From contig CM000152.2 of assembly GCA_000004695.1 (NCBI GenBank), forward strand, positions 2,816,001 through 2,880,000: a DNA stretch of 64,000 bases. Reading direction: 5' to 3'. Source of the DNA: Dictyostelium discoideum (taxonomy: Eukaryota). The notes beneath the pieces are model-generated. The model saw only the letters and a program-made list of their open reading frames with translations. It made no database searches and was not told the DNA's origin. A program made the translations under genes and the position numbers. Within the stretch, counting starts at the first letter, position 1, and every line of letters starts with the position of its first letter. Shown here in pieces: positions 24,616-60,123 of this stretch.

Positions 24616-24647
<32 letters not shown>

Positions 24648-25133: not shown

Positions 25134-28100
25134 ATGACCAAATTTCTTTTTATTTTATTAATTTCTTACTTGTTAATTATAAATGCTATCAAAGGTCAAT
25201 TAAATACTCAAAATGGTATGAAAAAAAAAAAAAAAAAAAAATAAAAAGAAAGATATTTGTTTACTAATTATATTTTTTTTTTTTTTTTATTTATTTTTTA
25301 AACATTTATTTCATTTAAAAAGGACAATGCCTTACTAATATTTATTCAAATTTAGAATTAAGTATTGATCCAGTAGATTATTGTTCATTAAATTATGCAA
25401 GTTGTAATGGACAATTTGTTACTGGTTTGTAAGTAAAAAAAAAAAAAACTAAGAATTAAAATTTCAATAACTAATTATTTTAATTATTTATTTAACTTCT
25501 TTTTATCTTATATACAAAAAAAGAAACATAAACTCATATACATCTACATACGAATTTTCTCAAGTTGATTTTCAATGTTTTTCAAAGCTTTCAACACTTT
25601 TTCTATCAAATTTAAAAATTTCATTTGATTTTTTGGAAGGACCACTCCCTAATGGAATTGCTCTTTCCTTTCAAAATTGTTCTACAACTTATAATACTTT
25701 TTTTAATACACCAATTCATTCAAGTATAGTTCATTTATCAATTGATACAATACCTCCACAGTCATTACCTATTAATATTAACTTATCATTCCTTAATAAA
25801 GTTAGTTTTTTGTAAGTATTTTGCCAAAAAAAAAAAAAAAAAAAAGTTATCCTATTAATATTATTTATAATTTAAAATTCAAAACCTAAAATTAATTTAT
25901 TATTTTTTTTTTCTAAAAAATAGTTTATTTAGATTGAAAAAATTGGATTCATCCACCGATAATATTACATTGATTAATGATTTCCCAGTTGATAGTATGA
26001 ACCAATTTTCTCAAATAGTAATTGATATTAAAGATTTACCACCAATGGATAATGTTATTGTTGAAAGTCTAAGTTTAAGAACTTATAATGCACCCACTAA
26101 TAAAGGATACAATAATATTAAAACTTTAAAGAATATTTCTTATTTGTATATTTTCATTGAACAGGGATATTCAGATTTTAGTGAATTTGCTTTAATTCCA
26201 AATCAAAATAACATAAAACAATTGTATATATTTTTTTTAAAATTATTATTATTAATAATATTATTATTATTATTTTTCCCAATTATTAATAAAATATGTA
26301 TTATTATCTTTATTATTATTACTTTTTTAATAAATTAGATCATTTTCAGGAAATTTATCACCAGCATCAACAGGTAGAATTGATTTAAGAAATTTATTAA
26401 AATTGAATTTATTAAAATTAATGTCAGTTTCACTAAATTTTAATTATCAAGGTAATATTCCACTTATTCTACCACAAACAGTTCAACATTTTCAGATTTC
26501 AGAGGGTTTATTTTCAGTTGGAGTAAAAGAGTTTTTGAATGCTTATCCAAATATCTCTGAGGTTTATATCTTAAACAATCAAATGGATGGTAATTTTTCA
26601 GAGTGGAAAAATAGAGGTTATGATCAATTTTCTATAAGTGGGAATAGATTTCAAGGAACTGTTGACTCGTCATGGTGTGCCACAATAGCAACATTATCCA
26701 GAAATAAATTGACAGGTGATTTACCATCATGTTTTGCTTGTCATTTGTATAGTACACTAATTAATAGTTCAATATCTCAAAATCATTTTAATCCTATTCC
26801 ACCATGTACAACTTTAATACCAAATCTTAGATTCAATTCATCAAGTAATCTATTATATCTATATGGTGATGACTTGGGTTTCTACACAAATGATATTAAA
26901 GTAACTTTATCAGAAACAAAATTTTTCAATCCTTTAATTTATTCAAAATTATTTTATTGTGATGCATTTACTCTATCAAATTTACCAGAAACTTTAGATA
27001 TATTTTTTAAAAGTGCAAATAAAAATTTCACATTATCAACAATTGAAAAATCACCATTAGTAAATTTAGTAACTGTTGCATCTTCATCTGGTTTGTTATT
27101 TTTTGATGGTTCATTTTTTAATTATAATAAATCATCAATTAAAATTCAAATTGAAGATTTAACATGTTTAATTACTCAAACTACATTTAATCAAATCAGT
27201 TGTCTAATTCAAGGATTTTATAATAAGAATTCAATTGCTAAAATTTCAATTTCAGTAGAAAGTTATTACACCAGTAATTTAAAAAATTTACAAACAAACC
27301 TTTTTGCTTATTTAAATCAATCAACAACTGTTTATAGTTGTTCATTAGATTGTAACTCACTTGGTGGTATTTGTAATACATTAATTGGTCAATGTTCATT
27401 TAATTGTCCAAATGATTGTACAAATTCTTTGGCAGGTACATGTAATAGTTCAACAGGAGTATGCAATTGTTATACTGATTTTCAAGGTTTAGATTGTTCA
27501 TTACCATTTAAAGCTTGTACATCAGATTGTAGTTCACCATTAAGTCAAGGTTCATGTAATAATCAAACTGGTATTTGTCAATGTATACCAAATTATCAAG
27601 GTTTAAATTGTAAAATTCCATCACATTATATTTCATCAGTTATTCCATGTTCAATTGATGGTGGTGAAGTTTTAATTAATGGTTGGTTTGGCAATAATAA
27701 TGATGGTACACATTTATTATCATCATATAATATAGTTATAGGTAGTTTAGATTGTATTGTTACATCAATTAATGAAACAACAATTACATGTAATCTTGGA
27801 GCAGGTACAGGTACAAAAAATATTAAAATTATAAATTCAATTAATCCAAATGTAATTTTCAATGGTAATGGATTATTTAATTATCAAAATCCAATTAAAA
27901 CTTGTCCAAATAGTTGTACAAGTTTAAATAATGGTAAATGTAATTCAAATACAGGTGAATGTCAATGTAACGATAAATTTAGTGGTTTCGATTGTAGTAC
28001 ACCAATTAAAATCATTGAAAGTGCACCATCAACAAATACATCAATCAATAAAGATACAGGAGGTATAGAACTTACCAATCAAGATACAATCTATGAAATT

Positions 28101-28877
28101 TCAATTATATCATTAAATGAAATTTCAATTGATGGTTCAATTATTAAATCACATCAATTAAAAGGTAATTGGTCAAGCGATAATACAACAATAACACCAG
28201 ATTCAAATTATTTCAAATTTTCACAACAATTAATTAATAATACATGTAAAATTACATTTACTATTGAAGAGATTAAATTAAAAGATAAGAACTTTACATT
28301 TGGAACGACAACGTTTAAAGTTGAAAAAGATTCAATAAAATTATCAGTTTTAATTCAAGATTATCAATATCAAAGTTCATTAAATACATTACAATTAATA
28401 TTTTATTCAGCAGTTGGGGATGATACAGACTCAAATGATGATTGTAATAAACAAGATACATCAATTGATACATCAAATGCAAATAATCAACAAATTTCAA
28501 ATTATATTCAAATTTCTAAAAATTCAAAAACATTAGTCGGTCGTTTCATTAATCAAGTAATTGCAGATTCAAGATCAACTTTTATGTCAAGTACAATTAT
28601 TAAAGATAATAATAATAATTCATCATCATCAGTTATGTTAGGATTAAATCTACCACATTGTAAAGAATGTTTAATTGATCCAGACTTTTCTGTATTAGTA
28701 AGTCCAGATTTTAAAGAATCATGCAATGAATCAAAAAACAAATGGCTAATACCTGTCGTTGTCATTGTACCTGTAGTAGGTTGTGCTGTAATTGTTACTC
28801 TATCTATTGTTTTTTTTAAAAAATATAAATATAATTTAAAATTTATTGCAATCAAATTAAAACCATTTAAAAAATAA
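25134..28877 (+). CDS. Array member A: five-exon gene (~25134-25215, ~25323-25428, ~25524-25811, ~25924-26230, ~26339-28877) for a type I membrane protein with signal peptide, LRR-like region, 3+1 EGF-like repeats, IPT/TIG domain, TM helix and short tail
   Basis: Exon 1 'MTKFLFILLISYLLIINAIKGQLNTQN' ends at GTATG. The small exons end at GTAAGT/GTATAT donors and keep phase. Exon 5 (ORF 26403-28877) has the Cys spacing of EGF/tenascin-type repeats (CNSLGGICNTLIGQC, CPNDCTNSLAGTCNSSTGVCNCYTDFQGLDC, CTSDCSSPLSQGSCNNQTGICQCIPNYQGLNC). It has an IPT/TIG-like segment (PSHYISSVIPCSIDGGEVLINGWF...SLDCIVTSINETTITCNLGAG). The TM helix is WLIPVVVIVPVVGCAVIVTLSIVFF and the tail is KKYKYNLKFIAIKLKPFKK. Confidence 0.75.
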
Positions 28878-30428: not shown

Positions 30429-32982
30429 TAGATCATTTACAGGAAAATTATTACCAACACCAGCAGGAATAATTGATTTAAGAAATTTATCAGGATTAGA
30501 ACTATTAAAATTATCGTTGGTTTCATCAGATTTCAATTATCAGGGTAATATTCCACTTAATTTACCACAAACAGTTACAAGTTTTGATATTTCTGGTGGT
30601 TCATTTTCAGTTGGTGTAAAAGAGTTTTTGAATGCCCACCCAAATATCTATACTGTTTTTATCACAAGTAATCAAATTAATGCTAATTTTTCAGAATGGA
30701 AAAATAGAGGTTATGATCAATTTTCTATAAGTGGGAATAGATTTCAAGGAACTGTTGATACATCATGGTGTACCACAATAATAACTATTTCCCAAAATAA
30801 ATTGACAGGTGATTTACCATCATGTTTTGCTTGTCATTTGTATAATGCATATATTAATTTTACAGTATCTGAAAATCTTTTTAATCCTATTCTACCATGT
30901 ACAACTTTAATACCAAATCTTAGATTCGATTCATCAAGTAATATATTATATCTATATGGCGATGACTTGGGTTTCTTTGATATTGATATTAAAATAGTTT
31001 CATCACCAACAAACTTATTCAATCATTTAATTTATTCAAAATTATTTTATTGTGATAAATTTACTCAATCAAATTTACCAGAAATTTTAACTTTAGATTT
31101 TACAAGTGCAAATAAAACTTTTATATTATCAACAGTTGAAAAACCACCATTGGTAGATTTAGTCACTGTTGCATCTTCATCTGCTTTATTATTTTTTGAT
31201 GGATCATTTTTTAATTATAATAAATCATCAATTAAAATCAAAGTTGATGATTTAACATGTTTAATTACTCAAACTACATTTAATCAAACTAGTTGTCTAA
31301 TTCAAGGATCATATAATAAGAATTCACTTGCTCAAATTACAATTACAGTAGAAAGTTATTATACTACTAAATTAAAAATATTACAAACAAACCTTTTTGC
31401 TTATTTAAATCAATCAACAACAGTTTATAGTTGTTCGTTGGATTGTAACTCACTTGGTGGTATTTGTAATACATTAACAGGTCAATGTTCATTTAATTGT
31501 CCAAATGATTGTGCAAATTCTTTGGCAGGTACATGTAATAGTTCAACAGGAGTATGCAATTGTTATACTGATTTTCAAGGTTTAGATTGTTCATTACCAT
31601 TTAAAGCTTGTACATCAGATTGTAGTTCACCATTAAGTCAAGGTTCATGTAATAATCAAACTGGTATTTGTCAATGTATACCAAATTATCAAGGTTCAAA
31701 TTGTAATATTCCATCACATTATATTACTTCAGTTATTCCATGTTCAATTGATGGTGGTGAAGTTTTAATTAATGGTTGGTTTGGCAATAATAATGATGGT
31801 ACACATTTATTATCATCATATAATATAGTTATAGGTAGTTTAGATTGTATTGTTACATCAATTAATGAAACAACAATTACATGTAATCTTGGAGCAGGTA
31901 CAGGTACAAAAAATATTAAAATTATAAATTCAATTAATCCAAATGTAATTTTCAATGGTAATGGATTATTTAATTATCAAAATCCAATTAAAACTTGTCC
32001 AAATAGTTGTACAAGTTTAAATAATGGTAAATGTAATTCAAATACAGGTGAATGTCAATGTAACGATAAATTTAGTGGTTTCGATTGTAGTACACCAATT
32101 AAAATCATTGAAAGTGCACCACCAACAAATACATCAATCAATAAAGATACAGGAGGTATAGAACTTACCAATCAAGATACAATATATGAAATTTCAATTA
32201 TATCATTAAATGAAATTTCAATTGATGGTTCAATTATTAAATCACATCAATTAAAAGGTAATTGGTCAAGCGATAATACAACAATAACACCAGATTCAAA
32301 TTATTTCAAATTTTCACAACAATTAATTAATAATACATGTAAAATTACATTTACTATTGAAGAGATTAAATTAAAAGATAAGAGTTTTACATTTGGATCG
32401 ACAACGTTTAAAGTTGAAAAAGATTCAATAAAATTATCAGTTTTAATTCAAGATTATCAATATCAAAGTTCATTAAATACATTACAATTAATATTTTATT
32501 CAGCAGTTGGAAATGATTCAAATTCTAACAATGATGATTGTAATAAACAAGATACATCAATTGATACATCAAATGCAAATAATCAACAAATTTCAAATTA
32601 TATTCAAATTTCTAAAAATTCAAAAACATTAGTCGGTCGTTTCATTAATCAAGTAATTGCAGATTCAAGATCAACTTTTATGTCAAGTACAATTATTAAA
32701 GATAATGATAATAACTCATCGTCATCAGTTATGTTGGGATTAAATCTACCACATTGTAAAGAATGTTTAATTGATCCAGACTTTTCAGTATTGGTAAGTC
32801 CAGATTTTAAAGAATCATGCAATGAATCAACAAATAAAAACAAATGGTTAATACCTGTCGTTGTCATTGTACCTGTAGTAGGTTGTGCTGTAATTGTTAC
32901 TCTATCTATTGTTTTTTTTAAAAAATATAAATATAATTTAAAATTTATTGCAATCAAATTAAAACCATTTAAAAAGCAATAA
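29223..32982 (+). CDS. Array member B: five-exon paralog (~29223-29298, ~29403-29508, ~29607-29906, ~30037-30337, ~30432-32982), 821-aa main exon
   Basis: Same architecture as A. Signal peptide is MKFLLILFISYLIINLVKGQLNLQE. The 3' ~1.6 kb is nearly identical to A, C, D and E. The N-terminal part is ~80% identical to A and >95% identical to C. Confidence 0.75.
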
Positions 32983-33860: not shown

Positions 33861-36800
33861 AGGAATAAAATTCCAAAAACTAATTATTTATTTAAATTAT
33901 TTGTTTAACTTCTTTTTAAATGTTTAATAAAAAAAAAGAAATATAAAATCATATACATCCACACACGAATTTTCTCAAGTTGATTTTCAATGTTTTTCAA
34001 AGGTTATATCAATTAGTATTTCAGATTTAAAAATTTCATCAACATTTTTAGAAGGACCATTCCCCACCGAAGTAGCACTCTCCTTTCACAATTGCTCTAC
34101 TACTTATAGTAATTTATTTTCAACAATAATCAATTCAAATATAACGTATTTGTCTTTTGATAGAATAGATCCACTTCAAATATCAAATACTGTTAATATC
34201 AAATTATCATACCTTAATAGAGCGTCAATTTTGTAAGGTTTTTTTTTTTTTATATTTTATTTATTTTATTTATTAATTTATTTATTTATTTATTTATTTA
34301 TTTATTTTTTTAAAAAAAGTATTTTTAGTATTATAAAAGTAAGTTCATCATCTGATTATATCATATTGATTAATGATATCCCAGCTGGTAGTACGAAATC
34401 ATTTACTCAAATTGCAATGGATATTAAAGATTTACCACCAATGGATAATATTATTTTGAACGGTCTTAATATAAGAACTTTTAATTCACCTACTAGTAAA
34501 GGATACAGCAATATTCAAACTTTAAAATATATTACAAATTTCTATATTTTCATTAATCAAGGATATTCAGATTTTAGTGAATTTGCTTTAATTCCAAATC
34601 AAAATAACTTTAAAATAATGTATTTATTATTATTTTTTAAAAAATCATTATTTATTTAATTTATATTAATAAAAATAAAAATAATAATAATATAATATAT
34701 AGACAAATGGCAGGAAATTTATCACCAACACCAACTGGAATAATTGATTTAAGAAATTTATCAGGATTAAAACAATTAATATTATCGTTGGTTTCATCAG
34801 ATTTCAATTATCAAGGTCATATTCCACTTAATTTGCCACAAACAGTTAAAAATTTTCATATTTCCGATGGTTCATTTTCAGTTGGTGTAAAAGAGTTTTT
34901 GAATGCTTATCCGAATATCTCTATTGTTTCTATCCCAGGCAATCAAATTAACGCTAATTTTTCAGAATGGAAAAATAGAGGTTATGATCAATTTTCTATA
35001 AGTGAGAATAACTTTCAAGGAACTGTTGATTCATCATGGTGTACCACAATGACAACTTTATTAAAAAATAAATTGACAGGTGATTTACCATCATGTTTCG
35101 CTTGTCATTTGTATAATGAATATATTAATTTTACAGTATCTGAAAATCTTTTTAATCCTATTCTACCATGTACAACTTTAATACCAAATCTTAGATTCGA
35201 TTCATCAAGTAATATATTATATCTATATGGTGATGACTTGGGTTTCTATGAAACTGATATTAAAATAGTTTCATCACCAACAAAATCATTCAATCATTTA
35301 ATTTATTCAAAATTATTTTTTTGTGATAAATTTACTCAATCAAATTTACCAGAAATTTTAACTTTAGATTTTACAAGTGCAAATAAAACTTTTATATTAT
35401 CAACAGTTGAAAAACCACCATTAGTAGATTTAGTCACTGTTGCATCTTCATCTGCTTTATTATTTTTTGATGGATCATTTTTTAATTATAATAAATCATC
35501 AATTAAAATCAAAGTTGATGATTTAACATGTTTAATTACTCAAACTACATTTAATCAAACTAGTTGTCTAATTCAAGGATCATATAATAAGAATTCACTT
35601 GCTCAAATTACAATTACAGTAGAAAGTTATTATACAACTAAATTAAAAATATTACAAACAAACCTTTTTGCCTATTTAAATCAATCAACAACAGTTTATA
35701 GTTGTTCGTTGGATTGTAACTCACTTGGTGGTATTTGTAATACATTAATTGGTCAATGTTCATTTAATTGTCCAAATGATTGTACAAATTCTTTGGCAGG
35801 TACATGTAATAGTTCAACAGGAGTATGCAATTGTTATACTGATTTTCAAGGTTTAGATTGTTCATTACCATTTAAAGCTTGTACATCAGATTGTAGTTCA
35901 CCATTAAGTCAAGGTTCATGTAATAATCAAACTGGTATTTGTCAATGTATACCAAATTATCAAGGTTTAAATTGTAATATTCCATCACATTATATTACTT
36001 CAGTTATTCCATGTTCAATTGATGGTGGTGAAGTTTTAATTAATGGTTGGTTTGGTAATAATAATGATGGTACACATTTATTATCATCATATAATATAGT
36101 TATAGGTAGTTTAGATTGTATTGTTACATCAATTAATGAAACAGAAATTAAATGTAATCTTGGAGCAGGTACAGGTACAAAAAATATTAAAATTATAAAT
36201 TCAATTAATCCAAATGTAATTTTCAATGGTAATGGATTATTTAATTATCAAAATCCAATTAAAACTTGTCCAAATAGTTGTACAAGTTTAAATAATGGTA
36301 AATGTAATTCAAATACAGGTGAATGTCAATGTAACGATAAATTCATTGGTTTCGATTGTAGTACACCAATTAAAATCATTGAAAGTGCACCACCAACAAA
36401 TACATCAATCAATAAAGATACAGGAGGTATAGAACTTACCAATCAAGATACAATATATGAAATTTCAATTATATCATTAAATGAAATTTCAATTGATGGT
36501 TCAATTATAAAATCACATCAATTAAAAGGTAATTGGTCAAGCGATAATACAACAATAACACCAGATTCAAATTATTTCAAATTTTCACAAAAATTAATTA
36601 ATAATACATGTAAAATTACATTTACTATTGAAGAGATTAAATTAAAAGATAAGAACTTTACATTTGGAACGACAACGTTTAAAGTTGAAAAAGATTCAAT
36701 AAAATTATCAGTTTTAATTCAAGATTATCAATATCAAAGTTCATTAAATACATTACAATTAATATTTTATTCAGCAGTTGGAAATGATTCAAATTCTAAC

Positions 36801-37250
36801 AATGATGATTGTAATAAACAAGATACATCAATTGATACATCAAATGCAAATAATCAACAAATTTCAAATTATATTCAAATTTCTAAAAATTCAAAAACAT
36901 TAGTTGGTCGTTTCATTAATCAAGTAATTGCAGATTCAAGATCAACTTTTATGTCAAGTACAATTATTAAAGATAATAATAATAACTCATCGTCATCAGT
37001 TATGTTGGGATTAAATCTACCACATTGTAAAGAATGTTTAATTGATCCAGACTTTTCAGTATTAGTAAGTCCAGATTTTAAAGAATCATGCAATGAATCA
37101 ACAAATAAAAACAAATGGTTAATACCTGTCGTTGTCGTTGTACCTGTAGTAGGTTGTGCTGCAATTCTTACTCTATCTGTAGTTTTATATAAAAAATATA
37201 AATATAATTTAAAATTTATTGCAATCAAATTAAAACCATTTAAAGAATAA
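33525..37250 (+). CDS. Array member C: five-exon paralog (~33525-33600, ~33705-33810, ~33925-34235, ~34330-34620, ~34702-37250), 847-aa main exon
   Basis: Near-duplicate of B including ~300 bp of 5' flank. Exon 1 donor is GTACGA. TM helix is WLIPVVVVVPVVGCAAILTLSVVLY. Confidence 0.75.
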
Positions 37251-37358: not shown

Positions 37359-37583
37359 CCTATTTATGTTTTATCTAATTAAATGCCAAAATAAAATGGT
37401 GTGTTATTGTTGAAGGATTCAAAACCCCAAAAAAAAAAAAATAATAAAAAATCAGACTCTTTGAAAAACTGGGTCTCATTAGTAGGATGGCGTAACCCTT
37501 ATTTTTTTTTTATTTCTAAACTTAATTCTTCAATTTTTTTTATTACTTTCTGAATGTGCAACTATTTTTTATTTTTTTTAATG

Positions 37584-37616: not shown

Positions 37617-38260
37617 ATAAGAAATGGTTACATTTATTTTTTATGTCATTTTGTGTATTTTTGAAGGAGATTTCTATTTATCATACTAAATTCATATTAA
37701 AAATAAATAAAATTAAATTTTTGTTCAAAAAAAAATGAAAAATGAAAATATTTTTTTTTATTTCAAATGCCAATGTTTTTATCTTTTTAAATTTTCTTTT
37801 TTTATTTTTTTTTTTAAAAATAACGCCCTTTAAAATAAATTTCTTCAATTATTAAAAAAATCAACGTAAAAAGTTTTTTTTCATATAAATTTTTATTTTT
37901 TTTATTTTTTTTTTTTATTTTTTTTTTTTATTTTTTTTTATTTTTTTTTTTTTTTTGTTTTATTTTATTTTTTATTTTATTTTATTTTATTTTATTTTAT
38001 TTTATTTTATTTTATTTTATTTTATTTTATTTTATTTTATAATTAAAATTGGCAAATTAATATGAATATTCAATTTTTATGTAATATTTTTATTTTTCGT
38101 CGAATAATTTGATATTTATAGGTTCCGTTTGATTTCTCGTTTAAATTTTCTTTTTTTTTTCTATTTTTTTTTTTTGGGATTGAAAATCTAAAAAATTATT
38201 TTTTTATAAAAAAAAAAAAAAACGATGATTTTTCATTAAGCAAACAACCAAAAAGTCGTG

Positions 38261-38397
38261 ATGATCAAATTTTTTACCATTTTAATTATATATTCTTTGT
38301 TGTTATTAAATTTTACCAAAGGTTCGACATTAGAGGACAGTGAAAGTATGAATAAAAAAAAAAAAAAAAAAAAAAGAAAATTCACAATACTAAATAT

Positions 38398-38430: not shown

Positions 38431-39055
38431 GATCACAAAAAAGAAATATGCTTAGATCATCTTTTATCAAATTTAGGAATAAATACTGTTATAGATTGTT
38501 TAAATAGTAATATTGTAGTATGTTCTACAAATAACCTAGGGACATTTGTTAGTGGTTTGTAAGAATGAATAAAAAAATAAAAAAAAAATAAAAAAAAAAA
38601 ATAATTCTATTAACATTTAATTTTTTATTACATTTTATTTAATTATTTATTTTATTTTATTTAATTTTGTTTTATTTTATTTTATTTTATTTTATTTTAT
38701 TTTATTTTATTTTATTTTATTTATTAGAGTTTTAAAATCAAACAATAATGCATACCAAATTTCTTCACTTGATTTTCAATGTTTTTCTAAGATTTCACAA
38801 GTTACTATTTCAAATTCAAATATTTCATCATCTTTTTTAAGAGGAAATACAACCATTGAATTCATTTCTTTTTCTAATAATACCATCGAATATAATGAAT
38901 TATTTTCATCACAAATTAATACAAAATTAAAAAATGTTTTTATTACTAATATACCACCACCAAATTCTCAAATTAATATTAATTTTTCAATAATTGCTTC
39001 CTTATCAAATTTGTAAGTTTTTTTTTTTTTTTTTTTTAATTTTTAATTCTTATTA

Positions 39056-39149
<94 letters not shown>

Positions 39150-39519
39150 CATTTTTATTAATATTATTTAATTAATTAAAATTGTTTTTTAAAAAAAGAC
39201 AATTTCAATTGAATACTTGGGGTGAGAATAGTAGATATATATCATTGATTAATGATTTTCCAGTTGGAGGAATGCGTCCAATCCCAAGTTTAGCAATGGA
39301 TCTTAAAGATATACCACCCATGGATAATGTTAAATGTGGAAGTGTTACTTTTAGAGCCTACGATTCACCTTCAGCTTTGGTTTTAGCATTTCCTAACATT
39401 AAAAAATATAAATTCAATTTATTTATACATTGCAAGAGGAACTTCAGATTTTACCCAATTTAGTTTAATTCCAAATGATAATTTTATATATACAATGTAT
39501 GTTTTTATTATTATTATTA

Positions 39520-39597
<78 letters not shown>

Positions 39598-42358
39598 TAT
39601 TATTTATTATTATTATTTTTATTATTAAAAAAGAACTAATTTATAATATTATTTTTTTTTTTTTTATTTTAAAAAAAAAAAAAGATTCTTTAATGGAGCT
39701 TTGATTTCACCATCTATTGTTGATTTAAGAAATTTAACTATATTAAATTATATTGATTTAAGAAATGTTATTTTAGATTTTAATTATCAAGGTAAAATTC
39801 CTCTTATTCTTCCTCAAAGTGTTACTAGTCTTGGTATTAGTGGAAGTTCTTTTTCTAGTGTTAATGAATTTATAGGAAATTATCCAAGAATTTCAACGAT
39901 TGCAATTTCTTTTAATCAAATTCCAGATAATTTTACAGAATGGAGAAATAGAGGTTATGCATCATTTGATGTAAATAATAATAAACTTCAAGGAACTATT
40001 GATTCGTCATGGTGTACTACTGTTTTAAAGATTGGTGATAATCAATTATCAGGTAAATTACCTTCTTGTTATACTTGTCATTTATTAAGTGATTATGTTA
40101 AATTTATGATTATTGGTGGTAAAAATTCATTTACAAATGTAGATCCAATACCAGAATGTACAACTTTAATACCAAACCTTAGATATAATTCCTCAACAAA
40201 AGAACTCACTCTATATGGTGATGATTTAGGTTTTTATACTGAAAATGTTATAGTACCAGGTTTTGATTATTCATTTTCTCCAAAGATTCAATCGAAATTA
40301 TTTGTAGCTAGTAATGTAATTCAATATGATTTACCCCAGATTTTAAATTTTAAATTTCCAGGAGCAAATAAAACATTTACATTATCAACAATTCAAAAAC
40401 CACCCATTATAAATACAGTAATAGCAACGGTTCAATCCTATTCTGTTATTTTAGAAGGATCATTTTTCAACTATAATATATCATCAATTGAAATCTTTAT
40501 TGGTGATGTTCAATGTTCAATAGTGTCTGCAACATTTTATAAAGTTGAATGTTTAACATTTGAAACATATGAGAAAAATATAATTGGAAAAGTTTCAATT
40601 AATATTAAAGATTATTACTATAGCAATTTAACAATATTAGAAACATCTGTAATTGCATATTTAAATCAAACTACACAAATTAAAAATTGTCAATTAGATT
40701 GTATCTCACTTGGTGGTTTTTGTAATACATTAATTGGTCAATGTAATATTGATTGTCCAAATAATTGTACTGGTTCATTATCAGGTACTTGTGAAAGATC
40801 AACAGGAGTTTGTATTTGTAATATTGGTTATCAAGGTATTGATTGTTCAGTACCAATTCATTCTTGTCCCTCAAATTGTAATGCTCAATCCAATCAAGGT
40901 ACATGTAATTATCAAAATGGTATTTGTCAATGTTCTCCAAATTATCAAGGTTTAGATTGTTCATTACCATTTAAAGTTTGTACATCAGATTGTAGTTCAC
41001 CATTAAATCAAGGTTCATGTAATAATCAAACTGGTATTTGTCAATGTATACCAAATTATCAAGGTTCAAATTGTAATATTCCATCACATTATATTACATC
41101 AGTTATTCCATGTTCAATTGATGGTGGTGAAGTTTTAATTAATGGTTGGTTTGGTAATAATAATGATGGTACAAATTTACTATCATCATATAATATTGTT
41201 ATAGGTAGTTTAGATTGTATTGTTACATCAATTAATGAAACAGAAATTAAATGTAATCTTGGAGCAGGTACAGGTACAAAAAATATTAAAATTATAAATT
41301 CAATTAATCCAAATGTAATTTTCAATGGTAATGGATTATTTAATTATCAAAATCCAATTAAAACTTGTCCAAATAGTTGTACAAGTTTAAATAATGGTAA
41401 ATGTAATTCAAATACAGGTGAATGTCAATGTAGTGATAAATTTAGTGGTTTCGATTGTAGTACTCCAATTACAATCATTGAAAGTGCACCACCAACAAAT
41501 ACATCAATCAATAAAGATACAGGAGGTATAGAACTTACCAATCAAGATACAATCTATGAAATTTCAATTATATCATTAAATGAAATTTCAATTGATGGTT
41601 CAATTATAAAATCACATCAATTAAAAGGTAATTGGTCAAGTGATAATACAACAATAACACCAGATTCAAATTATTTCAAATTTTCACAAAAACTAATTAA
41701 TAATACATGTAAAATTACATTCACTATTGAAGAGATTAAATTAAGAGATAAGAGTTTTACATTTGGAACAACAACGTTTAAAGTTGAAAAAGATTCAATA
41801 AAATTATCAGTTTTAATTCAAGATTATCAATATCAAAGTTCATTAAATACATTACAATTAATATTTTATTCAGCGGTTGGAGATGATACAAATTCAAATT
41901 CAAATAATGATTGTAATAAACAAGATACATCAATTGATACATCAAATGCAAATAATCAACAAATTTCAAATTATATTCAAATTTCTAAAAATTCAAAAAC
42001 ATTAGTCGGTCGTTTCATTAATCAAGTAATTGCAGATTCAAGATCAACTTTTATGTCAAGTACAATTATTAAAGATAATAATAAATCATCTTCATCATCA
42101 TCATCATCATCAGTTATGTTGGGACTAAATCTACCACATTGCAAAGAATGTTTAATTGATCCAGACTTTTCTGTATTAGTAAGTCCAGATTTTAAAGAAT
42201 CATGCAATGAATCAACAAATAAAAACAAATGGTTAATACCTGTCGTTGTCGTTGTACCTGTAGTAGGTTGTGCTGTAATTGCTACTATATCTATACTAAT
42301 GTATAGAAAGAATAGATATAGAATACAGCTTCTCAAACTAAGAACTTTTAAAAAATAA
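38261..42358 (+). CDS. Array member D: five-exon paralog (~38261-38345, ~38441-38549, ~38712-39011, ~39200-39489, ~39679-42358) with 4+1 EGF-like repeats; exon 4 carries a 2-nt deletion that gives a premature stop, so it may be a pseudogene
   Basis: Signal peptide is MIKFFTILIIYSLLLLNFTKGS. Exons 1-3 and exon 5 (ORF 39701-42358, 885 aa) are intact and in phase. Exon 4 reads '...SPSALVLAFPNIKKYKFNLFIHCKRNFRFYPI*' in the entering frame. The frame needed for exon 5 reads 'FLTLKNINSIYLYIARGTSDFTQFSLIPNDNFIYTM', which matches paralogs A-C. Compared with gene A, the gene D sequence is 2 nt shorter at ~39395-39420. Intron 4 holds two long (ATT)n arrays. Confidence 0.65.
39058..39155. repeat. (ATT)n microsatellite in intron 3 of gene D; a second array lies at 39497-39600 in intron 4
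   Basis: Direct reading. Confidence 0.9.
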
Positions 42359-43637: not shown

Positions 43638-46328
43638 ATGACAAAATTAATTACAATATTAATATTTTTTTTTTTATTATTTAATGTTATTAAAAGTTCT
43701 TCAACTGACCAAAGTATGTAGGAAAAAAAAAATAAAAAAATAAAAAACAAAAAAAAAAAAAACTTATATTTAAAAACTTTTTTTTTTTTTTTCATATTTA
43801 TTAAGATTGCTTGAATACTCTTAAAAATCAATTAAATGTAAAAGAATGTATAATTTGCCAAAAGGAAAATTGCATAAATACATTTGAATCATGTATTTCT
43901 GGTGATGAGGAAAATTTAAGTGTGTAGGTTTAAATTAATAAATAAAATAAATAAAAAAATAAATAAAAAAAAAATAAAAAAAAAAAAAATAAATAAATAA
44001 ATAAATAAATTAATAAATTATTATTATCACTAATTTTTGAAAATGTAATTTTTTTAATAGATTCTTAGACCAAATTCCAATTGATAGATTTGATCCTACA
44101 TGTTTTAAAAAGGTCAAAGAATTAACCATAAAAAACTTGAATTTTACAGAGTATTTGGATTCATTCAATGGTACATCTATTTCACTTATTGATTGTACTT
44201 ATGATAATTTAAATTCAATTAAGCATAATAAGATATATTTAACACATCTAAATATTACTAATTTAAAAACACAAGAGATTGGGGATATTGCTATTAATTT
44301 TATTAAAACCTTAATAGGATTTAAATCTATTTCTTATTTTTCATTTACTTTCAGTAATATTATCGGGGATTTCTCTGAATTCACGGCCGTGTTGGAAAAT
44401 TTAGAAATTAAAAGTTTTGAAATAAATAATAATCAACTTGTTGGAACTATTAATTCATCATGGTGTAATACCCTTTTAAAAATTAATAATAACAAGTTAT
44501 CCGGTGAATTACCATCTTGTTTTACATGTCATATTTATAGTGATTACGTTAAAAGTATGATTATTACTGGAAATAAATTTACAAATGAAAATCCAATAGC
44601 AGATTGTAAAACTTTAAAACCAAACCTTTTTTATAATTCCACTAGTCGCGAACTGTATCTCTATGGTAAAGATTTAGGTTTTATATCTGATGATATTAAA
44701 AATGATAAATATACTTTCAATTTAGAGAAACCTTCGAAATTATTTATAGCAACTAATGTAAATGAATCAGATTTACCAAAATATTTAAATATTACCTTTT
44801 CAGGAGCAAAAAAAGAATTTTCATTATCTACAACCAAAATAGCACCAATTGTATCCTCGATAACAATTTCAGAAATATTAGATTCAATAACCTTTACTGG
44901 AACAAATTTAAATGATCCACCACCAATTTCAATCTTGATTGGTGATAAAAATTACACAGACCTAAATTTTAATTTTAATCAAGTCCAATGTAAAATTCAA
45001 AGATTAAGTTATGATGATGATTTTGTAATCGTTAAAATTATTAATGGAGATGATTTTTACAAATTCAGTACTACTATATATACATATATAAACCAAAGCA
45101 TACAAGTTGATTATTGTTCAAAAGTTTGTAAAAAACTTGATGATGGTGTTTGCATTAAAATAAAAGAATATTGTGGTGGTGGAAATATAATATCAAATTC
45201 TTGTACTTCTTCAACAGCAGGCGGTTGTAATTGTTCAAATGATTTTCAAAATTCTTTTTGTTCCTATATACCTTGTCCTATGGATTGTAATTCTGAATCT
45301 AACCAAGGTATATGTAATTATCAAACTGGTAAATGTGAATGCCTACCATATTACCAAGGTCTGGATTGCTCTTTACCAAATAAACCCTGTAATACCAATT
45401 GTAGTTTTGATTCCGATCAAGGTAAATGTAATACTCAAACTGGTAATTGTGAATGCTCACCAAATTTCCAAGGTAAAAATTGTGAATTACCATTAAAATA
45501 TTGTTCATCAGACTGTAGTGCACCATTAAATAAAGGTTTTTGTAATGATCAAACTGGTATTTGTCAATGTTTTCCAAATTATCAAGGTTCAGATTGTTCT
45601 TTACCATTAAAAGTTTGTACATCAGATTGTAGTTTCGATTTAAATCAAGGCTGGTGTAATAATCAAACTGGTACTTGTCAATGTAAACCAAATTATCAAG
45701 GTTCGGATTGTAAAACTCCATCACATTATATTACATCAGTTATTCCATGTTCAATTGATGGTGGTGAAGTTTTAATTAATGGTTGGTTTGGTAATAATAA
45801 TGATGGTACAAATTTACTATCATCATATAATATTGTTATAGGTAGTTTAGATTGTATTGTTACATCAATTAATGAAACAGAAATTAAATGTAATCTTGGA
45901 GCAGGTACCGGTACAAAAAATATTAAAATTATAAATTCAATTAATCCAAATGTAATTTTCAATGGTAATGGATTATTTAATTATCAAAATCCAATTAAAA
46001 CTTGTCCAAATAGTTGTACAAGTTTAAATAATGGTAACTGTAATTCAAATACAGGTGAATGTCAATGTAATGATAAATTTAGAGGTTTCGATTGTAGTAC
46101 ACCAATTAAAATCATTGAAAGTGCACCATCAACAAATACATCAATCAATAAAGAAACAGGAGGTATAGAACTTACCAATCAAGATACAATATATGAAATT
46201 TCAATTATATCATTAAATGAAATTTCAATTGATGGTTCAATTATAAAATCATATCAATTAAAAGACAATTGGTCAATTTATAATATAAATGATGAATCAA
46301 CAACAAAAAGAACAACAACAACAAAAAG

Positions 46329-46380
<52 letters not shown>

Positions 46381-47067
46381 GATTTCAATAATATATTCAT
46401 GTTTTCACAAAAATTAATTAATAATACATGTAAAATTACTTATACCATAGAAGAGATTAAATTAAAAGATAAGAACTTTACATTTGGAACAACAACGTTT
46501 AAAGTTGAAAAAGATTCAATAAAATTATCAGTTTTAATTCAAGATTATCAATATCAAAGTTCATTAAATACATTACAATTAATATTTTATTCAGCAGTTG
46601 GAAATGATTCAAATTCTAACAATGATGATTGTAATAAACAAGATACATCAATTGATACATCAAATGCAAATAATCAACAAATTTCAAATTATATTCAAAT
46701 TTCTAAAAATTCAAAAACATTAGTCGGTCGTTTCATTAATCAAGTCATTGCAGATTCAAGATCAACTTTTATGTCAAGTACAATTATTAAAGATAATGTA
46801 AAATCATCATCAATTATGTTAGGATTAAATCTACCACATTGTAAAGAATGTTTAATTGATCCAGACTTTTCAGTTTTGGTTAGTCCAGATTTTAAAGAAT
46901 CATGTAATGAATCAACAAATAAGAACAAATGGTTTATACCAGTCATTGTCGTTGCACCTGTGGTAGGTTGTGCTGCAATTCTTACTCTATCTATTGTTTT
47001 GTATAGAAAGAACAAATATAACATTAAAATTGCTTCTGAAAAATTAAAATCTTTGAAAAGGAAATAA
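43638..47067 (+). CDS. Array member E: three-exon paralog (~43638-43714, ~43809-43921, ~44063-47067) with 6+1 EGF-like repeats and a poly-Thr insertion; it lacks the introns that separate exons 3, 4 and 5 in A-D
   Basis: Signal peptide is MTKLITILIFFFLLFNVIKSSSTDQ. Donors are GTATGT and GTAGGT. Exon 3 runs without interruption into ORF 44137-47067 (976 aa). The N-terminal half is strongly diverged but keeps the GELPSCFTCHIYS / LPNLFYNSTS..LYLYGKDLGF framework. There are extra Cys-rich repeats at 45240-45720. (ACA)n encodes TTKRTTTTKRT(T)17 at ~46300-46380. The 3' 1.3 kb is nearly identical to A-D. Confidence 0.75.
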
Positions 47068-54917: not shown

Positions 54918-57900
54918 TCATATGAATTGATCAAAAGATATAATATTTGGGAGAGATGATTCTGGAATACAATAGTAATTAGCTGTTGTTTTTCTTAGCT
55001 TGATCGTTGAGGTGAGAAGGATCTTAGGATCTTTGAAATTATTATGGTCTTTTGCTGATAAGTTTTTCAGATCTTTTGCTTTTTTGATGTATTCTAGAGT
55101 GGCCAATTTGTGCCATTTCTTTAGAAGGGAGCTGTATGATAATGATTCATTTGTTAAAGGATCTTCACTGTATATTTGATTGCAAATCCAAATCCAAATG
55201 TTGTGGAGGATAAGGGCCATTAGGTTTCTATATGCGAATGATCTGGTTAGATCATAGTCTATTGCTTTATAGTTCCATTCAAAGTATTCTTTGTGGAATC
55301 TGTGGTTGGCGTAATCTGCATTCACTTCTTGATCTTTTTTGGCTGTCGGTGATAATTTTGGAGTTATTCTATTAATGAAATTGTTATTTTGCCTAATTCT
55401 TGTATGATGCCAGTTTTTACCTTTGCCTGTGGTAATATAGATGAAATTTTTGAGTTTATTTATTTTTATGAATTGTTTTGTTTTCTTGCATGAGAAGAAC
55501 AGGTGACCGTATGGGTCTTTGCTCATATCTTCTTTGCAGAGTGGGCATTGTTTGTTGTGAAGGTAGTTTATTGGAAGGCATCTGGCATGGAATCTAAACA
55601 TTGTGTCTCTTGTTTTAGGGTCTTTTATCTTCAGTATGTTGTTGAAGAGTTGATTATAGCTGTAGCCTCTTAAGTTTAGAGATGATTGGATTTCCGTTTT
55701 AGGGATGGTTGGATTTTGGTCTTGAATTGTGGTATACCATTCTGCCAGTGAAAGTGGTTGTCCATTTTCGTTTTTTATGGATGTGAGATTATTGTTGAAG
55801 ATTGCTTTTTTGATTCTTATTTTGTTCCATTCGTCTAAGTTTTCTTTTAGGTATCTGGATGTGAATTTGTTTTTTTGGATTTGATATTCCCAGCTTTTGT
55901 GATGAGATGAGTTTGTTTGTTTGGTTTCTAGTGCTAGGATGAATTGGTTTATGATCCAAAGTTTCTGCGCCAGTTGTCTCAATTCTATATTCCAAATGTT
56001 CCAGCCCCCTACTTTTAGTGGGTATCTTGCTCTTTTGGTTCTCATTAAATTAATAACTTGAAATCCACTAGCATTTTTGTTGTTTGGTGCCGATAAAAAC
56101 CATTCGACTAATTTATTGATTTGGTTTAATTCCTCTTCCTTAAAGTTCTCTACATATGAATAGTAGGTTAATTTAGAGAGTGCGAATGCTTTGAGGATGT
56201 TGGTTTTGGTTTTGATTGTTGAGTCAGTGGTTTTCCATAGTACTAAGGATGATCTTATTGTGTTTAATATTTCTGGCATTTTTCTTGTTATCCCTTTGCC
56301 TGTGAAGAAGTATCCCAAGTATCTTTCTGGATTTGTAGATATTGGAATTCTTTGGTTGGTATTGTCTGGGTTGCCTATAAGAATTGATGAAGATTTGTCG
56401 ATGTTTAGTTTTGAGGAAGTGGCTTTGCAAAATGAATTGAAGTGTTGTAGTACTAATTCAAGTTGTTGAAAGTCTGGGACCATTGAAGCCGAGTCGTCTG
56501 CAAAGCTTTGGAATTTCTCTCTGTGGTTGCTGTTGTTTAGAGGAAGGCCAGTAATTCGGTCATCTTGTAAAATTTTTCTAGCTAAAGCCTCTATTACAAG
56601 GACGAACAGGGTGGGTGATAGTGGATCTCCTTGTTTAACTCCTCTTTTGATCTCAAAGGGTATAGTAGTTCTTCCATTAATTTCAATTCTTGCTTCAGAT
56701 TTGGTGAGTAGATTCATTATCAGGTTGATTATATTGGTTGGAATGTTGATGTGTTGTAGTGATCTAAGTATTGAACCGTGTGAGATCGAGTCAAAAGCTT
56801 TTTCGAAATCATATAGTGTAATTATTCCGTTAATTCTTTTATCATTACAATAGTTGATTAATTCGTTCATTGATATGATATTATCTAGAATGAATCTGCC
56901 TGGTACGAAACCTTTTTGATTGTGGTTGATCACTTTCGTTAGTATTGGGATTATTCTATTGTTTATTAGTTTTGAGTGGATTTTATATATACAGTTAGCC
57001 AGTGTAATTGGTCTTCTGTTTTTGATTAGTTCGGGGTCTCCCTTTTTAGGTATCGTGATAATGAGGCCTTCTTTGTAATTTTTGCTAATTAGATGAGGAT
57101 TTCTTAGAGTGTCGTTGAATGCTGAGGCCAGTATTGGAGCTAGTTTTTCTTTGTGTGTTATGTAGAATAAGTTTGGAATTCCATCTGGGCCTGGAGATTT
57201 GTGTGGGTTCAATTGTTTTATTACTTCTAGGATCTCTTGTGATGTGAATTCATTTTCAAGGTTGTCCCATGTTGAGTCCCTGGTCACTGTCCAATTTTCC
57301 AACATTTCATAATGAGATGGTGGGTCATCTTCTTTGTAGTCATAAAGATTTGAGTAATATTTTACGTATTCTTCTTCGATCAATTCCTGTTTGTTGATTG
57401 TTCTACCTTGTGCATCTTTTACTGCGTTGATGGTGAAATCATTGTGTCTTTTCTTGATTCTCGCGGAGATGTACTTGAGTGAGGTTTCTTCGCAATAGTT
57501 GTTCAATTCTTGTTTAAGTTGTTCTTCTCTTTTTTTAGATTCATTTATTGCTGAAAGGGTTGCGAAGGCTTGGTCTTTAAATTCTGTCTCTAGTAGGGAG
57601 ATTAGATTTTTGATGTTTGCCTTATTGTTGTAGTCATTTTGTTTTTGAAATTCTGTGTATAGTTGTTTTATTTTGTTTAGTAAGCTGTTGAGTTGAGAGA
57701 AGGAAATAGAGTTATGGTTGGATGACAGCTCCCTTGAATAATCGTTAAGTAGGAAGTCTATTTTCTTAAGCATTATGCTTGAGAGGATTGAGGATTTTTT
57801 TAATCTCCATCTGCGCTTGTTCATCTGTATGTTGGGTAGAGTGAAGGTGGTTGATAGGAAGTTGTGATCTGATAGAGGTATGTCATTAATTTTTGGGGGG

Positions 57901-58517
57901 ATTAGGTTCCTTAAGTATAATTGGCTGTAGTTGATTATGCTATTGTTAAGGTATATTCTGTCTAGTCTCCTTTCCAAGATTCTTGTGAGGTTATTGTTTG
58001 TGTTGTGTATCGTTCTTGAGAAGGTGGGTCTTTTATTTAGTTGGTCCATATCCATTAGGTTATTTGAAATTCTGATGGCTTCGATTACTGTGGCCATCTC
58101 ATCTGGGGATTGTGTTGTCAAGTTGCCTTGGTCATCATTTGATGTGTGATTGTCATTGAAGTCTAAACAGTTGAAGTCGCCTGCTATGATGTCGATGTTT
58201 TTATTAGGGTTAGACGTTAGGTTGTGGTATTGGTTGTTGAAGTGTTTGTTTAGTGTTGAAGCTAGTGTTTTTCTTTTATCAGGTTGGGCCGGGGCGTATA
58301 TGGCCAAGATTCTCGTTGTGGTATCTTTTATTAGAATGTCTGATATTATTAGTCTACCTTCTATTATGAATATTGGTGAGAGTTTTATGTTTTGGTTGTT
58401 GTGGTTTAGTATTCCTATTCCGTTGCCTCTGTTGGTTGCGCTAATGATGGAGCCAGGAAATAGCTGGTGTGCTTGTGTTGCGTCGGCGTTGAGTTCATTG
58501 ACTATGGTTAGTGCCAA
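54918..58517 (-). CDS. Retrotransposon ORF2: AP-endonuclease + reverse transcriptase + C-terminal Cys-rich (CPLCKEDMSKDPYGHLFFSC) domain
   Basis: Intact 1199-aa ORF with the motifs listed for the element. Confidence 0.8.
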   Translation of the reverse strand: MALTIVNELNADATQAHQLFPGSIISATNRGNGIGILNHNNQNIKLSPIFIIEGRLIISDILIKDTTTRILAIYAPAQPDKRKTLASTLNKHFNNQYHNLTSNPNKNIDIIAGDFNCLDFNDNHTSNDDQGNLTTQSPDEMATVIEAIRISNNLMDMDQLNKRPTFSRTIHNTNNNLTRILERRLDRIYLNNSIINYSQLYLRNLIPPKINDIPLSDHNFLSTTFTLPNIQMNKRRWRLKKSSILSSIMLKKIDFLLNDYSRELSSNHNSISFSQLNSLLNKIKQLYTEFQKQNDYNNKANIKNLISLLETEFKDQAFATLSAINESKKREEQLKQELNNYCEETSLKYISARIKKRHNDFTINAVKDAQGRTINKQELIEEEYVKYYSNLYDYKEDDPPSHYEMLENWTVTRDSTWDNLENEFTSQEILEVIKQLNPHKSPGPDGIPNLFYITHKEKLAPILASAFNDTLRNPHLISKNYKEGLIITIPKKGDPELIKNRRPITLANCIYKIHSKLINNRIIPILTKVINHNQKGFVPGRFILDNIISMNELINYCNDKRINGIITLYDFEKAFDSISHGSILRSLQHINIPTNIINLIMNLLTKSEARIEINGRTTIPFEIKRGVKQGDPLSPTLFVLVIEALARKILQDDRITGLPLNNSNHREKFQSFADDSASMVPDFQQLELVLQHFNSFCKATSSKLNIDKSSSILIGNPDNTNQRIPISTNPERYLGYFFTGKGITRKMPEILNTIRSSLVLWKTTDSTIKTKTNILKAFALSKLTYYSYVENFKEEELNQINKLVEWFLSAPNNKNASGFQVINLMRTKRARYPLKVGGWNIWNIELRQLAQKLWIINQFILALETKQTNSSHHKSWEYQIQKNKFTSRYLKENLDEWNKIRIKKAIFNNNLTSIKNENGQPLSLAEWYTTIQDQNPTIPKTEIQSSLNLRGYSYNQLFNNILKIKDPKTRDTMFRFHARCLPINYLHNKQCPLCKEDMSKDPYGHLFFSCKKTKQFIKINKLKNFIYITTGKGKNWHHTRIRQNNNFINRITPKLSPTAKKDQEVNADYANHRFHKEYFEWNYKAIDYDLTRSFAYRNLMALILHNIWIWICNQIYSEDPLTNESLSYSSLLKKWHKLATLEYIKKAKDLKNLSAKDHNNFKDPKILLTSTIKLRKTTANYYCIPESSLPNIISFDQFI

Positions 58518-58621
58518 TGAGTTTGGGGGGGATTGGGATTTGATAAAGTCTGTTTTGTTTTTGAAGGAGGTGTCAGTGCCCCAACCTCTGACATTCCATT
58601 GGTTGATTTTGATTACTACTA

Positions 58622-59872
58622 TTATGAGATGATATCGATCTCCTCTTGGGAGTCGTATAGCTGCGGTTTGGATGGTGAAGGGTAGATACTCTCTATGAAG
58701 CTCTCAATGATTCCTTTCCTTTCTTTTTTGACAGGTGTCTTAGGGGTGGATGGGATGTAAGGGTTGCTTCTGTTTATTGTTGGTGAGAGTTGGGTGACTT
58801 CATTGTTTGAGTGGATTTCCTCGTTCTTGCGTTTATGTGATGGAGGGATGTTTAGTGTCTTCTCTCTGTTTTCCGAGGATGAATGGATGTTAGTGCTTGT
58901 TTTGTTGGCATTGTCTTTTTGGATGGCGTTGGATGTTGTGGTAGTGGTTGTGGTGGGTTTGACAGATTGAGATTCTGCTGGGTTTTTGGGGGGAAGAGGT
59001 TGAGATGACTTTTTTGCTTGGGCTTTTTTCTCTTGTGTTGATTGTTTATCAGACTGATTGTTTGCTGAGTTGTTTGTTTGTTGTTGTGGTTTTGGTTGAG
59101 AGGATTTGATTGCTATCCTGTTTTGAGTGTTAGGAGGATCTGTCATCTCATCTTCTAATGGTTCCTCCGTGTTGTTTGTCTCTACTTTCTTGTTTTTCTT
59201 TTGTGAGGAGTAGGTTTTGGTGGCCGTTCTGATGGTAAAGTTTGCGATTTCTGTAATGTGTTGGCCAGATTTCATTTGATCGCCTATTTTGCATTCTATT
59301 AGACCGAATACTATGAGGTGGTCGGTGGAGTATATAGTATTGTATATTGCATAGGGTATTTCTTCTGCAAAGGCAGTTTTGATGAGGGCGTCCACTATTC
59401 CTGCCTTTTCTCTGGGAATTCTTACTCTTCCTGTGAGGACGTGGAAGTCTCTACTGGAGGTGATGAAGGTTCCCAATTTGCTTCTATCTCTAATGATATT
59501 TAGGAGAGATTGTTCGTTTTTAATCATCAGGTGGATCATTTTTCTAGTTCCTTTGCCTATGTATATCTTGTCGATTGGGATATCGTAGTTTGAGAGTGTT
59601 TTTCTCATTTCTTCTAACCCCTTGAGATCCATTTTGGGGAATTCGAGTGTAATTGGGTAGAATCCGTTGTTCTTCTCGTAGGTTGAGAGCGCAGTCATGT
59701 TCAATATGGTCTCGCAGTATTTGGAGATGTCTTTGAGGCCTATTGATAGTTTGGGGTAAGTTTCCTTTGTCTCTGCTGTTTTTGTGGAGAATTCCTTAAT
59801 GAAGTTCTCCGATGCCTCGTCCATATGGGTGGAGGGGTTGGCCATTTTAGCCGCGTCTGCGTAGGAATTCAT
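58622..59872 (-). CDS. Retrotransposon ORF1 (416 aa, basic/Ser-Thr-Gln-rich C-terminal half)
   Basis: Intact ORF just upstream of ORF2 in the same element, with GC-normal composition. Confidence 0.6.
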   Translation of the reverse strand: MNSYADAAKMANPSTHMDEASENFIKEFSTKTAETKETYPKLSIGLKDISKYCETILNMTALSTYEKNNGFYPITLEFPKMDLKGLEEMRKTLSNYDIPIDKIYIGKGTRKMIHLMIKNEQSLLNIIRDRSKLGTFITSSRDFHVLTGRVRIPREKAGIVDALIKTAFAEEIPYAIYNTIYSTDHLIVFGLIECKIGDQMKSGQHITEIANFTIRTATKTYSSQKKNKKVETNNTEEPLEDEMTDPPNTQNRIAIKSSQPKPQQQTNNSANNQSDKQSTQEKKAQAKKSSQPLPPKNPAESQSVKPTTTTTTTSNAIQKDNANKTSTNIHSSSENREKTLNIPPSHKRKNEEIHSNNEVTQLSPTINRSNPYIPSTPKTPVKKERKGIIESFIESIYPSPSKPQLYDSQEEIDIIS

Positions 59873-60082
59873 CTCGATGGGATTCCTTTGAATCGGCGAT
59901 TTGGTAAGTTAGATCTGTAGATCGTGGTGGATTGGTGATTTTTTTCGAAAGATTGGTTAAAATTGACCGAGATTAAGGATAGAAAAGGATGAATTACTTT
60001 TCACGTGTATCTTGTATCCTCTTGATAGCCAATATAATATTAATTGTGAGTTCCTTTATTTACTGACAATTCATTAAAGGAA

Positions 60083-60094
60083 TCGAACCCTTTG
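60083..60094 (-). promoter_or_regulatory. External B box (ex-B box) downstream of the tRNA gene: GGTTCGATTCC on the tRNA strand
   Basis: The minus strand reads agGGTTCGATTCCttt, a perfect B-box consensus, ~30 bp after the tRNA 3' end. Dictyostelid tRNA genes characteristically carry such an extra B box. The surrounding sequence does not fold into a second tRNA, as no acceptor-stem partner is present. Confidence 0.5.
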
Positions 60095-60113
60095 TCTAAG
60101 TTGGGAAGACCCC

Positions 60114-60119
60114 AAAAAA
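60114..60119 (-). terminator. Pol III oligo(T) terminator (TTTTTT on the tRNA strand) 5 nt after the tRNA 3' end
   Basis: Plus strand reads cccAAAAAAtata immediately after the tRNA. Confidence 0.5.
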
Positions 60120-60123
60120 TATA

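Follow-up and report, generated by a model that had tools for sequence, protein, structure and literature searches.

The frameshift in exon 4 of the ComC-family gene DDB_G0280029 is most probably an error in the AX4 reference sequence of Dictyostelium discoideum

Introduction

The gene analysed here belongs with comC, which is listed as a developmentally essential group-4 gene and whose product combines a signal peptide with EGF domains and a membrane span (PMC4931340). At the sequence level the ComC family is recognised through two Pfam domains, LRR_ComC (PF24141) and ComC_SSD (PF22933). A different point of comparison is provided by the young unitary pseudogenes of tandem arrays, such as tgrB2 and tgrC2-C5, which are frame-disrupted members of a fast-evolving surface-protein family (PMC12745789). 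Three AX4-derived lines were found to share 1916 differences from the reference, with ~11.5 Mb callable per line, for which Saxer et al. 2012 held either errors in the reference or differences between stocks responsible (PMC3466296).

Here we analyse a stretch of 64 000 nucleotides of D. discoideum DNA (assembly GCA_000004695.1, contig CM000152.2, positions 2 816 001 to 2 880 000), referred to below as the window. Its fourth array gene, D, is an uncharacterised paralogue within a five-gene tandem array on chromosome 3. A sequence-only reading of the window had noticed a premature stop in exon 4 of D and had offered two accounts of it, a young pseudogene or an error of the assembly. Comparison with newly deposited Dictyostelium assemblies allowed us to weigh these accounts against each other and to locate the lesion.

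Materials and methods

The comparison set consisted of four assemblies (L001 to L004): ACTFIT (GCA_054883475.1, a 6.43-Mb chromosome record), ACTFIR, ACTFIW and ACTFIZ, the last deposited as 'D. cf. discoideum'. They come from Holland et al. 2025, whose de novo assemblies, built from Nanopore and Illumina reads, cover the lab strain AX2-214 along with nine isolates from the wild (PMC12745789). The exon structure of D was rebuilt from the window sequence together with orthologous proteins, and all of its introns are bounded by GT..AG. The coordinates of the features discussed are collected in Table 1.

Table 1. Features of the window, numbered from its first letter
Feature	Position	Strand	Remarks
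Gene A, large last exon	26403-28877	+	
Gene B, large last exon	30517-32982	+	
Gene C, large last exon	34707-37250	+	
Second cluster of window-only differences	37465-37498	.	6 substitutions in 34 nt, C-D intergenic
D exon 1	38261-38345	+	Signal-peptide-like N-terminus MIKFFTILIIYSLLLLNFTKGSTLEDSE, agreeing with the N-termini of P0063 and P0003; donor gtatga at 38346
D exon 2	38444-38558	+	KICLDHLLSNLG...TFVSGL; present in orthologue proteins P0062, P0063 and P0003
D exon 3	38728-39012	+	Ends in phase 2 (tt/gtaagt), fixing the frame into exon 4
D exon 4	39199-39496	+	298 nt in the window, 300 nt in four other assemblies; middle of LRR_ComC
'Intron' of XP_641460.1/Q54VZ0	39231-39438	+	208 nt of exon 4; gtagat...caagag; 31.7% G+C
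Lesion 1	39379-39380	+	GG in the window, GGG in all other assemblies; invariant Gly codon
Lesion 2	39388-39390	+	One A gone after 39388, T at 39390 where others have A; invariant Asn codon; Ile to Phe
Premature TAG	39461-39463	+	Met when exon 4 is read in the exon-3 phase (...RAYDSPSALVLAFPNIKKYKFNLFIHCKRNFRFYPI, then TAG)
Window-only T>A	39475	+	A in the window, T in all others; Ile to Asn (IPIDN to IPNDN)
D exon 5	39685-42358	+	2674 nt; remaining LRR, EGF repeats, ComC_SSD, hydrophobic membrane-span-like segment, short tail
Gene D, large last exon	39701-42358	+	Exon 5 from 39685
3' tract of exon 5	41051-42166	+	D 90-99% identical to A-C, mostly so for E
Gene E, large last exon	44137-47067	+	

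Results

The window has a G+C content of ~20% and carries five tandem genes (A-E) on the forward strand, all of which encode EGF repeats and a ComC supersandwich domain; the C-terminal part of LRR_ComC was matched additionally in genes C and D. A protein search with the last exon of D gave a 100% match to DDB_G0280029 on AX4 chromosome 3 (XP_641460.1, UniProt Q54VZ0; hereafter P0001), and gene C corresponds to DDB_G0280003 (P0007). ComC_SSD was matched in full in exon 5 of the window (E=3.5e-59, profile 1-222/222), with P0001 and the orthologues P0062 and P0063 matching likewise, and EGF_2, EGF_TEN and EGF_laminin matches were also found in D. LRR_ComC is complete in P0062, the D protein of ACTFIT (residues 68-369, profile 1-288/288, E=8.8e-15), and P0063 covers the whole profile (1-288/288) as well; in both proteins exon 4 supplies the middle of the domain. 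In the window as deposited the LRR_ComC match is confined to the part encoded by exon 5 (profile 180-288).

When the two bases discussed below are restored, the translation of D can be read directly from a signal-peptide-like N-terminus, MIKFFTILIIYSLLLLNFTKG, to a C-terminus in which WLIPVVVVVPVVGCAVIATISILMY, a hydrophobic stretch that would span the membrane, is followed by the short basic tail RKNRYR. The repaired D and its orthologues share the full architecture of the ComC family, and on the domains predicted from its sequence D is a ComC-family member among the group-4 dictyostelid surface proteins. By analogy, it would act at the cell surface in developmental contact-dependent signalling or adhesion. 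More distant members of the family, P0039 (DDB_G0272364) and P0046 (DDB_G0272334), are 29-32% identical. A literature search for DDB_G0280029 returned no match.

The introns of D are themselves repetitive: introns 3 and 4 consist largely of (ATT)n microsatellites of ~90 nt (39055-39150 and 39505-39600) and intron 2 largely of (TTTTA)n (38640-38720). Such tracts would impede read mapping and primer design near exon 4. Rfam and tRNA scans of the window revealed no element near the D locus, and the strand opposite exon 4 of D holds no ORF of note. Further downstream, the window contains a G+C-rich (35-41%), strongly skewed block (54918-62034) in which reverse-transcriptase ORFs at 54918-58517 (-) and 60298-62034 (+) flank a tRNA-Arg(ACG) gene (60124-60197, -); this block fits the pattern of the tRNA-targeted non-LTR (TRE-type) retrotransposons of Dictyostelium.

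The frameshift itself was readily reproduced. If the phase of exon 3 is carried over into exon 4 of D, the translation runs ...DSPSALVLAFPNIKKYKFNLFIHCKRNFRFYPI and then meets a TAG, which bears out the premature stop of the sequence-only reading; it lies at codon 250 of the 1152-codon gene. The alternative frame reads HFLTLKNINSIYLYIARGTSDFTQFSLIPNDNFIYT and ends in ...TLKNINSIYLYIARGTSDFTQFSLIPNDNFIYT, and this is the frame which joins exon 5, at 39685, through the donor gtatgt at 39497; the exon ends one base before this donor and not at 39489, where it had been placed. Given its phases, the exon falls two short of a multiple of three, and at 298 nt as against 300 nt in every orthologue the net deficit of 2 nt was correctly recognised. 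Likewise, paralogues A-C do read NIKTLKNISYLYIF... as described, and the string quoted for paralogue A is present at 26114-26152. The 'NIK' match between D and A, on the other hand, arose by chance from the shifted frame.

The deficit is not, however, the single 2-nt deletion at ~39395-39425 that had been deduced. That position had been obtained by aligning D to its paralogue A, an approach which we rejected, as paralogue identity in exon 4 is ~68-70% and it is the orthologue alignment that gives the true sites. Aligned to orthologues, the window shows two separate 1-nt losses within 39379-39390, the other assemblies reading GCTTTGGGTTTTAGCAATATCC where the window has GCTTTGG-TTTTAGCA-TTTCC. 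The window allele at 39374-39393 is GCTTTGGTTTTAGCATTTCC. At the second site GCAATATCC of the other assemblies is replaced by GCATTTCC, a lost base with a substitution beside it. The two lost bases fall in Gly and Asn codons that are invariant in all seven sequences compared (paralogues A-C and the D orthologues), and once repaired, exon 4 of D aligns to A-C without a gap from ISLINDFP to the end of the exon. Gene conversion from a paralogue was considered as the source of the window variants and rejected: A-C retain the Gly and Asn codons, and their local DNA is unrelated.

A protein search recovered intact D orthologues of 1138-1152 aa from the newly deposited Dictyostelium assemblies. In the comparison with other strains, which the sequence-only reading had proposed as a check, exon 4 is 300 nt long and open in all four independent assemblies. 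These assemblies are 0-13% diverged from one another in exon 4. They might conceivably all be wrong and the window correct for the species, for instance if polishing had gone astray among the paralogues of the array; indel errors are indeed made in Nanopore assemblies, and many homopolymer lengths differ between ACTFIT and the window. We regard this as the least probable of the explanations considered, to the point of being negligible, as four separate assemblies so diverged agree on the same two bases and keep the frame, the sites lie in a 3-base and a 2-base run and not in long homopolymers, and polishing across paralogues only ~68-70% identical in exon 4 could not have yielded these bases. 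The frameshifted ORF, looked up by exact match as a 63-aa and as a 93-aa version, has no record among public assemblies, and neither allele was matched in JGI metagenome contigs; both results are uninformative as to the choice between the explanations.

Among the four, ACTFIT is nearly identical to the window. Over window positions 23503-47252 it aligned as a single block (99.79% identity) that contains 9 gaps and 12 substitutions, giving a substitution identity of 99.95% over 23.7 kb; the gene C protein is identical in the two sequences, and exon 5 of D is free of differences throughout. ACTFIR and ACTFIW diverge from the window by 5-10% here. Wild D. discoideum isolates are genetically diverged from AX4 according to Holland et al., and AX2 and AX4 are 99.5% identical at the tgrBC locus (PMC12745789). 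By elimination, because the other D. discoideum isolates are clearly diverged, ACTFIT is almost surely the lab strain AX2-214. Most gaps between ACTFIT and the window mark long runs of A or T that are unequal in length. Long poly-T/poly-A tracts at 24641, 33215, 33429, 33817, 38399 and 42591 are 2-12 nt longer in the window, which could stem from the compression of homopolymers by Nanopore, from over-calling by Sanger sequencing or from real slippage.

The remaining differences proved to be strongly polarised. At all 11 polarisable substitutions, and at both indels outside homopolymers, the diverged isolates agree with ACTFIT and the window stands alone; if changes were split evenly between the two sequences, 13 of 13 on the window side would have a probability of ~1e-4. 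Within D, both indels and the substitutions at 39390, 39475 and 39633 (an A>G in intron 4) are found in the window and in none of the four assemblies. The differences are also clustered, three of them lying within 10 nt (39381-39390). A second cluster lies in the non-coding DNA between genes C and D (Table 1), where ACTFIR and ACTFIW side with ACTFIT wherever they can be aligned (ACTFIW at 5 of 6 positions), and this looks like a second patch of low quality in the reference. Only one of the 11 polarised changes is a G:C>A:T transition.

AX2 and AX4 both derive from the isolate NC4. For D. discoideum a substitution rate of 2.9e-11 per site per generation has been measured (PMC3466296), with a second estimate of 2.47e-11 (PMC7466956). 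At the former rate fewer than one change is expected in 23.7 kb even over 1e5 generations, as against the 12 substitutions and 2 non-homopolymer indels observed. As the density of differences is far above that expected for sister lab strains, spontaneous mutation is a poor account of them.

The public AX4 gene model deals with the frameshift in its own way. When mapped to the window, P0001 (1032 aa) starts at an ATG at 38348, within intron 1, skips exons 1 and 2, and joins 39230 to 39439, so that 208 nt of exon 4 are treated as an 'intron'. An alternative splice bypassing the region had been named by the sequence-only reading as something that would undo its claim, and the public model does exactly this; yet base composition and conservation identify the intron as an annotation device. 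The four real introns of D have G+C contents of 12.2, 4.7, 3.2 and 2.7%, while the removed segment (Table 1) is the G+C-richest part of the region. In all four other assemblies the same segment is open, in frame and conserved as protein, and it aligns to paralogues A-C. Because it is G+C-rich and is conserved coding sequence elsewhere, the intron is artificial, and it is therefore a workaround of the gene predictor for the frameshift.

It could still be argued that the AX4 gene is functional as annotated, with a genuine 208-nt intron which skips the shifted stretch to give the 1032-aa XP_641460.1, given that the segment has GT..AG borders and that the resulting frame is open. We consider this very improbable. 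An intron of this composition would stand apart from the four real ones, it would cut the middle out of LRR_ComC, the Pfam match to which is lost in P0001, and it would have to be coding sequence in four assemblies; the same model, moreover, is without the signal-peptide exon and exon 2. The ACTFIT annotation carries model errors of its own (L001 1624-9472 and 14528-18824; window 38062-38082). It merges A and B into a single product of 2165 aa, and its D model P0062, like P0002, begins with a mini-exon, MNIQFLC, and not with the signal-peptide exon of P0063 and P0003.

With the two bases restored, D has a coding sequence of 3459 nt with a single, terminal stop and a product of 1152 aa, the length of P0063 and P0003. 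Apart from the differently modelled N-terminus, this product differs from P0062 only by F227I and N255I, which stem from the window-only substitutions at 39390 and 39475.

Discussion

The results above are best explained by a reference sequencing error, and we hold with considerable confidence that the lesion is not a biological one. Three lines of evidence favour this reading: neither the almost identical sister strain nor the three more diverged isolates have the lesion, window-only differences are clustered around it, and the sequence downstream of it is without decay. The frameshift would go back to base-calling in a patch of poor quality within the Sanger reference of AX4 chromosome 3 from 2005, in which two bases were probably dropped (a G from the GGG run at 39379-80, and the A that should follow 39388) and the neighbouring positions 39390, 39475 and 39633 miscalled. 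Poor Sanger reads characteristically show dropped bases in short runs together with adjacent miscalls. The error had also been envisaged by the sequence-only reading, as a slip within the A/T-rich stretch 39395-39425; it would instead consist of two single-base drop-outs and a miscall at 39379-39390. The automatic AX4 model would then have absorbed the error through an invented 208-nt intron within exon 4. We infer that the sequence is intact in living AX4 cells, and the true DDB_G0280029 is most likely an intact five-exon gene encoding a 1152-aa ComC-family type I membrane protein.

The other account offered for the stop, a young pseudogene, fared less well than that of an error. A frame-disrupting lesion is certainly present in the genomic sequence (exon 4 of 298 nt, stop at codon 250), and in this D resembles tgrB2 and tgrC2-C5, likewise a frame-disrupted member of a fast-evolving surface-protein family. 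Unlike these pseudogenes (PMC12745789), however, D has a lesion that is missing in the sister lab strain, and it shows no further lesions, truncation or downstream divergence. No sign of downstream decay or relaxed constraint was seen, exon 5 being unchanged and no other stop present. Among orthologues, exon 4 gave dN/dS values of 0.29-0.83 on 12-37 changes, too few to be read beyond 'coding and fast-evolving'. What was found, namely variants confined to a single assembly, clustered in non-coding DNA as well as in D, and at a density beyond the mutation rate, is the profile of a reference error.

A more specific form of the pseudogene account is that the lesion is real in the AX3/AX4 lineage, where a clustered event after the split from AX2, for example mutagen-induced or through error-prone repair, would have made D a very young lab-strain pseudogene. 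AX3 was isolated after chemical mutagenesis, and AX3/AX4 and AX2 are separate NC4 derivatives. A mutated AX4 lineage would also show differences polarised towards the window; the frameshift is, after all, present in the deposited sequence, and as the content of ComC-family arrays varies among isolates the loss of one copy may be tolerated. If this were true, the most widely used reference strain would silently lack one ComC-family surface protein that AX2 retains, and the two standard lab backgrounds would differ genetically in a hidden way. We nevertheless judge it unlikely. Thirteen changes in 24 kb lie orders of magnitude above the measured rate, a similar window-only cluster is found in non-coding DNA, and the 2.7 kb of exon 5 carry no second lesion. 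Damage by nitrosoguanidine or other alkylating agents is expected mainly as G:C>A:T, and with 1 of 11 changes of this kind the spectrum is not mutagen-like; mutagenesis of this type was thus judged unlikely as a source.

Resequencing of AX4 has, in addition, already given ~1900 common discrepancies from the reference (PMC3466296), which again argues for an error over a real lesion in AX3/AX4. The density of the discrepancies of Saxer et al. is ~1.7e-4 per site as compared with ~5e-4 here, that is, of the same order. Their data comprise substitutions only, without a list covering DDB_G0280029, and reads of 31 nt with 0-1 mismatch would not map across three changes in 10 nt. A dedicated literature search on AX4 reference errors returned no match, the study of Saxer et al. 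2012 having been reached otherwise.

The sequence-only reading had also noted that the 3' part of D is homogenised with the rest of the array. This is true of the tract listed in Table 1, but it is not informative as to pseudogene status, since all members share the pattern. The last exons of the array are similar over their 3' 1.1-1.4 kb, the ComC_SSD region, and the boundaries of this similarity are sharp; towards the 5' side, D and E share only ~45-70% identity with the other members (~60-65% for the 5' part of exon 5 of D against A-C), whereas A, B and C are mutually 86-100% identical through most of the exon. The array shows concerted evolution, and the sharp boundaries suggest that this, or gene conversion, is limited to the 3' half. 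Array content varies by isolate, ACTFIW having models of 726 aa and 1016 aa upstream of D; in the diverged isolates, copies of the A/B/C type are 88-95% identical to those of the window and D orthologues 85-94%. These comparisons point to a turnover of copies in the array.

Returning to the reference error, its biological significance is small, as one further error in an old Sanger reference; of more practical value is the correction of annotation. The public DDB_G0280029 protein is wrong in three ways, as it has no signal-peptide exon, no exon 2, and an LRR from which 69 codons have been cut. Family counts, domain surveys and proteomics based on the AX4 proteome, as well as the design of knock-outs in the ComC array, inherit this error. 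Introns which bypass a frameshift in automatic models can be exposed by comparison with the AX2-214 and wild-isolate assemblies, and many AX4 models could probably be put right by screening the whole genome in this manner.
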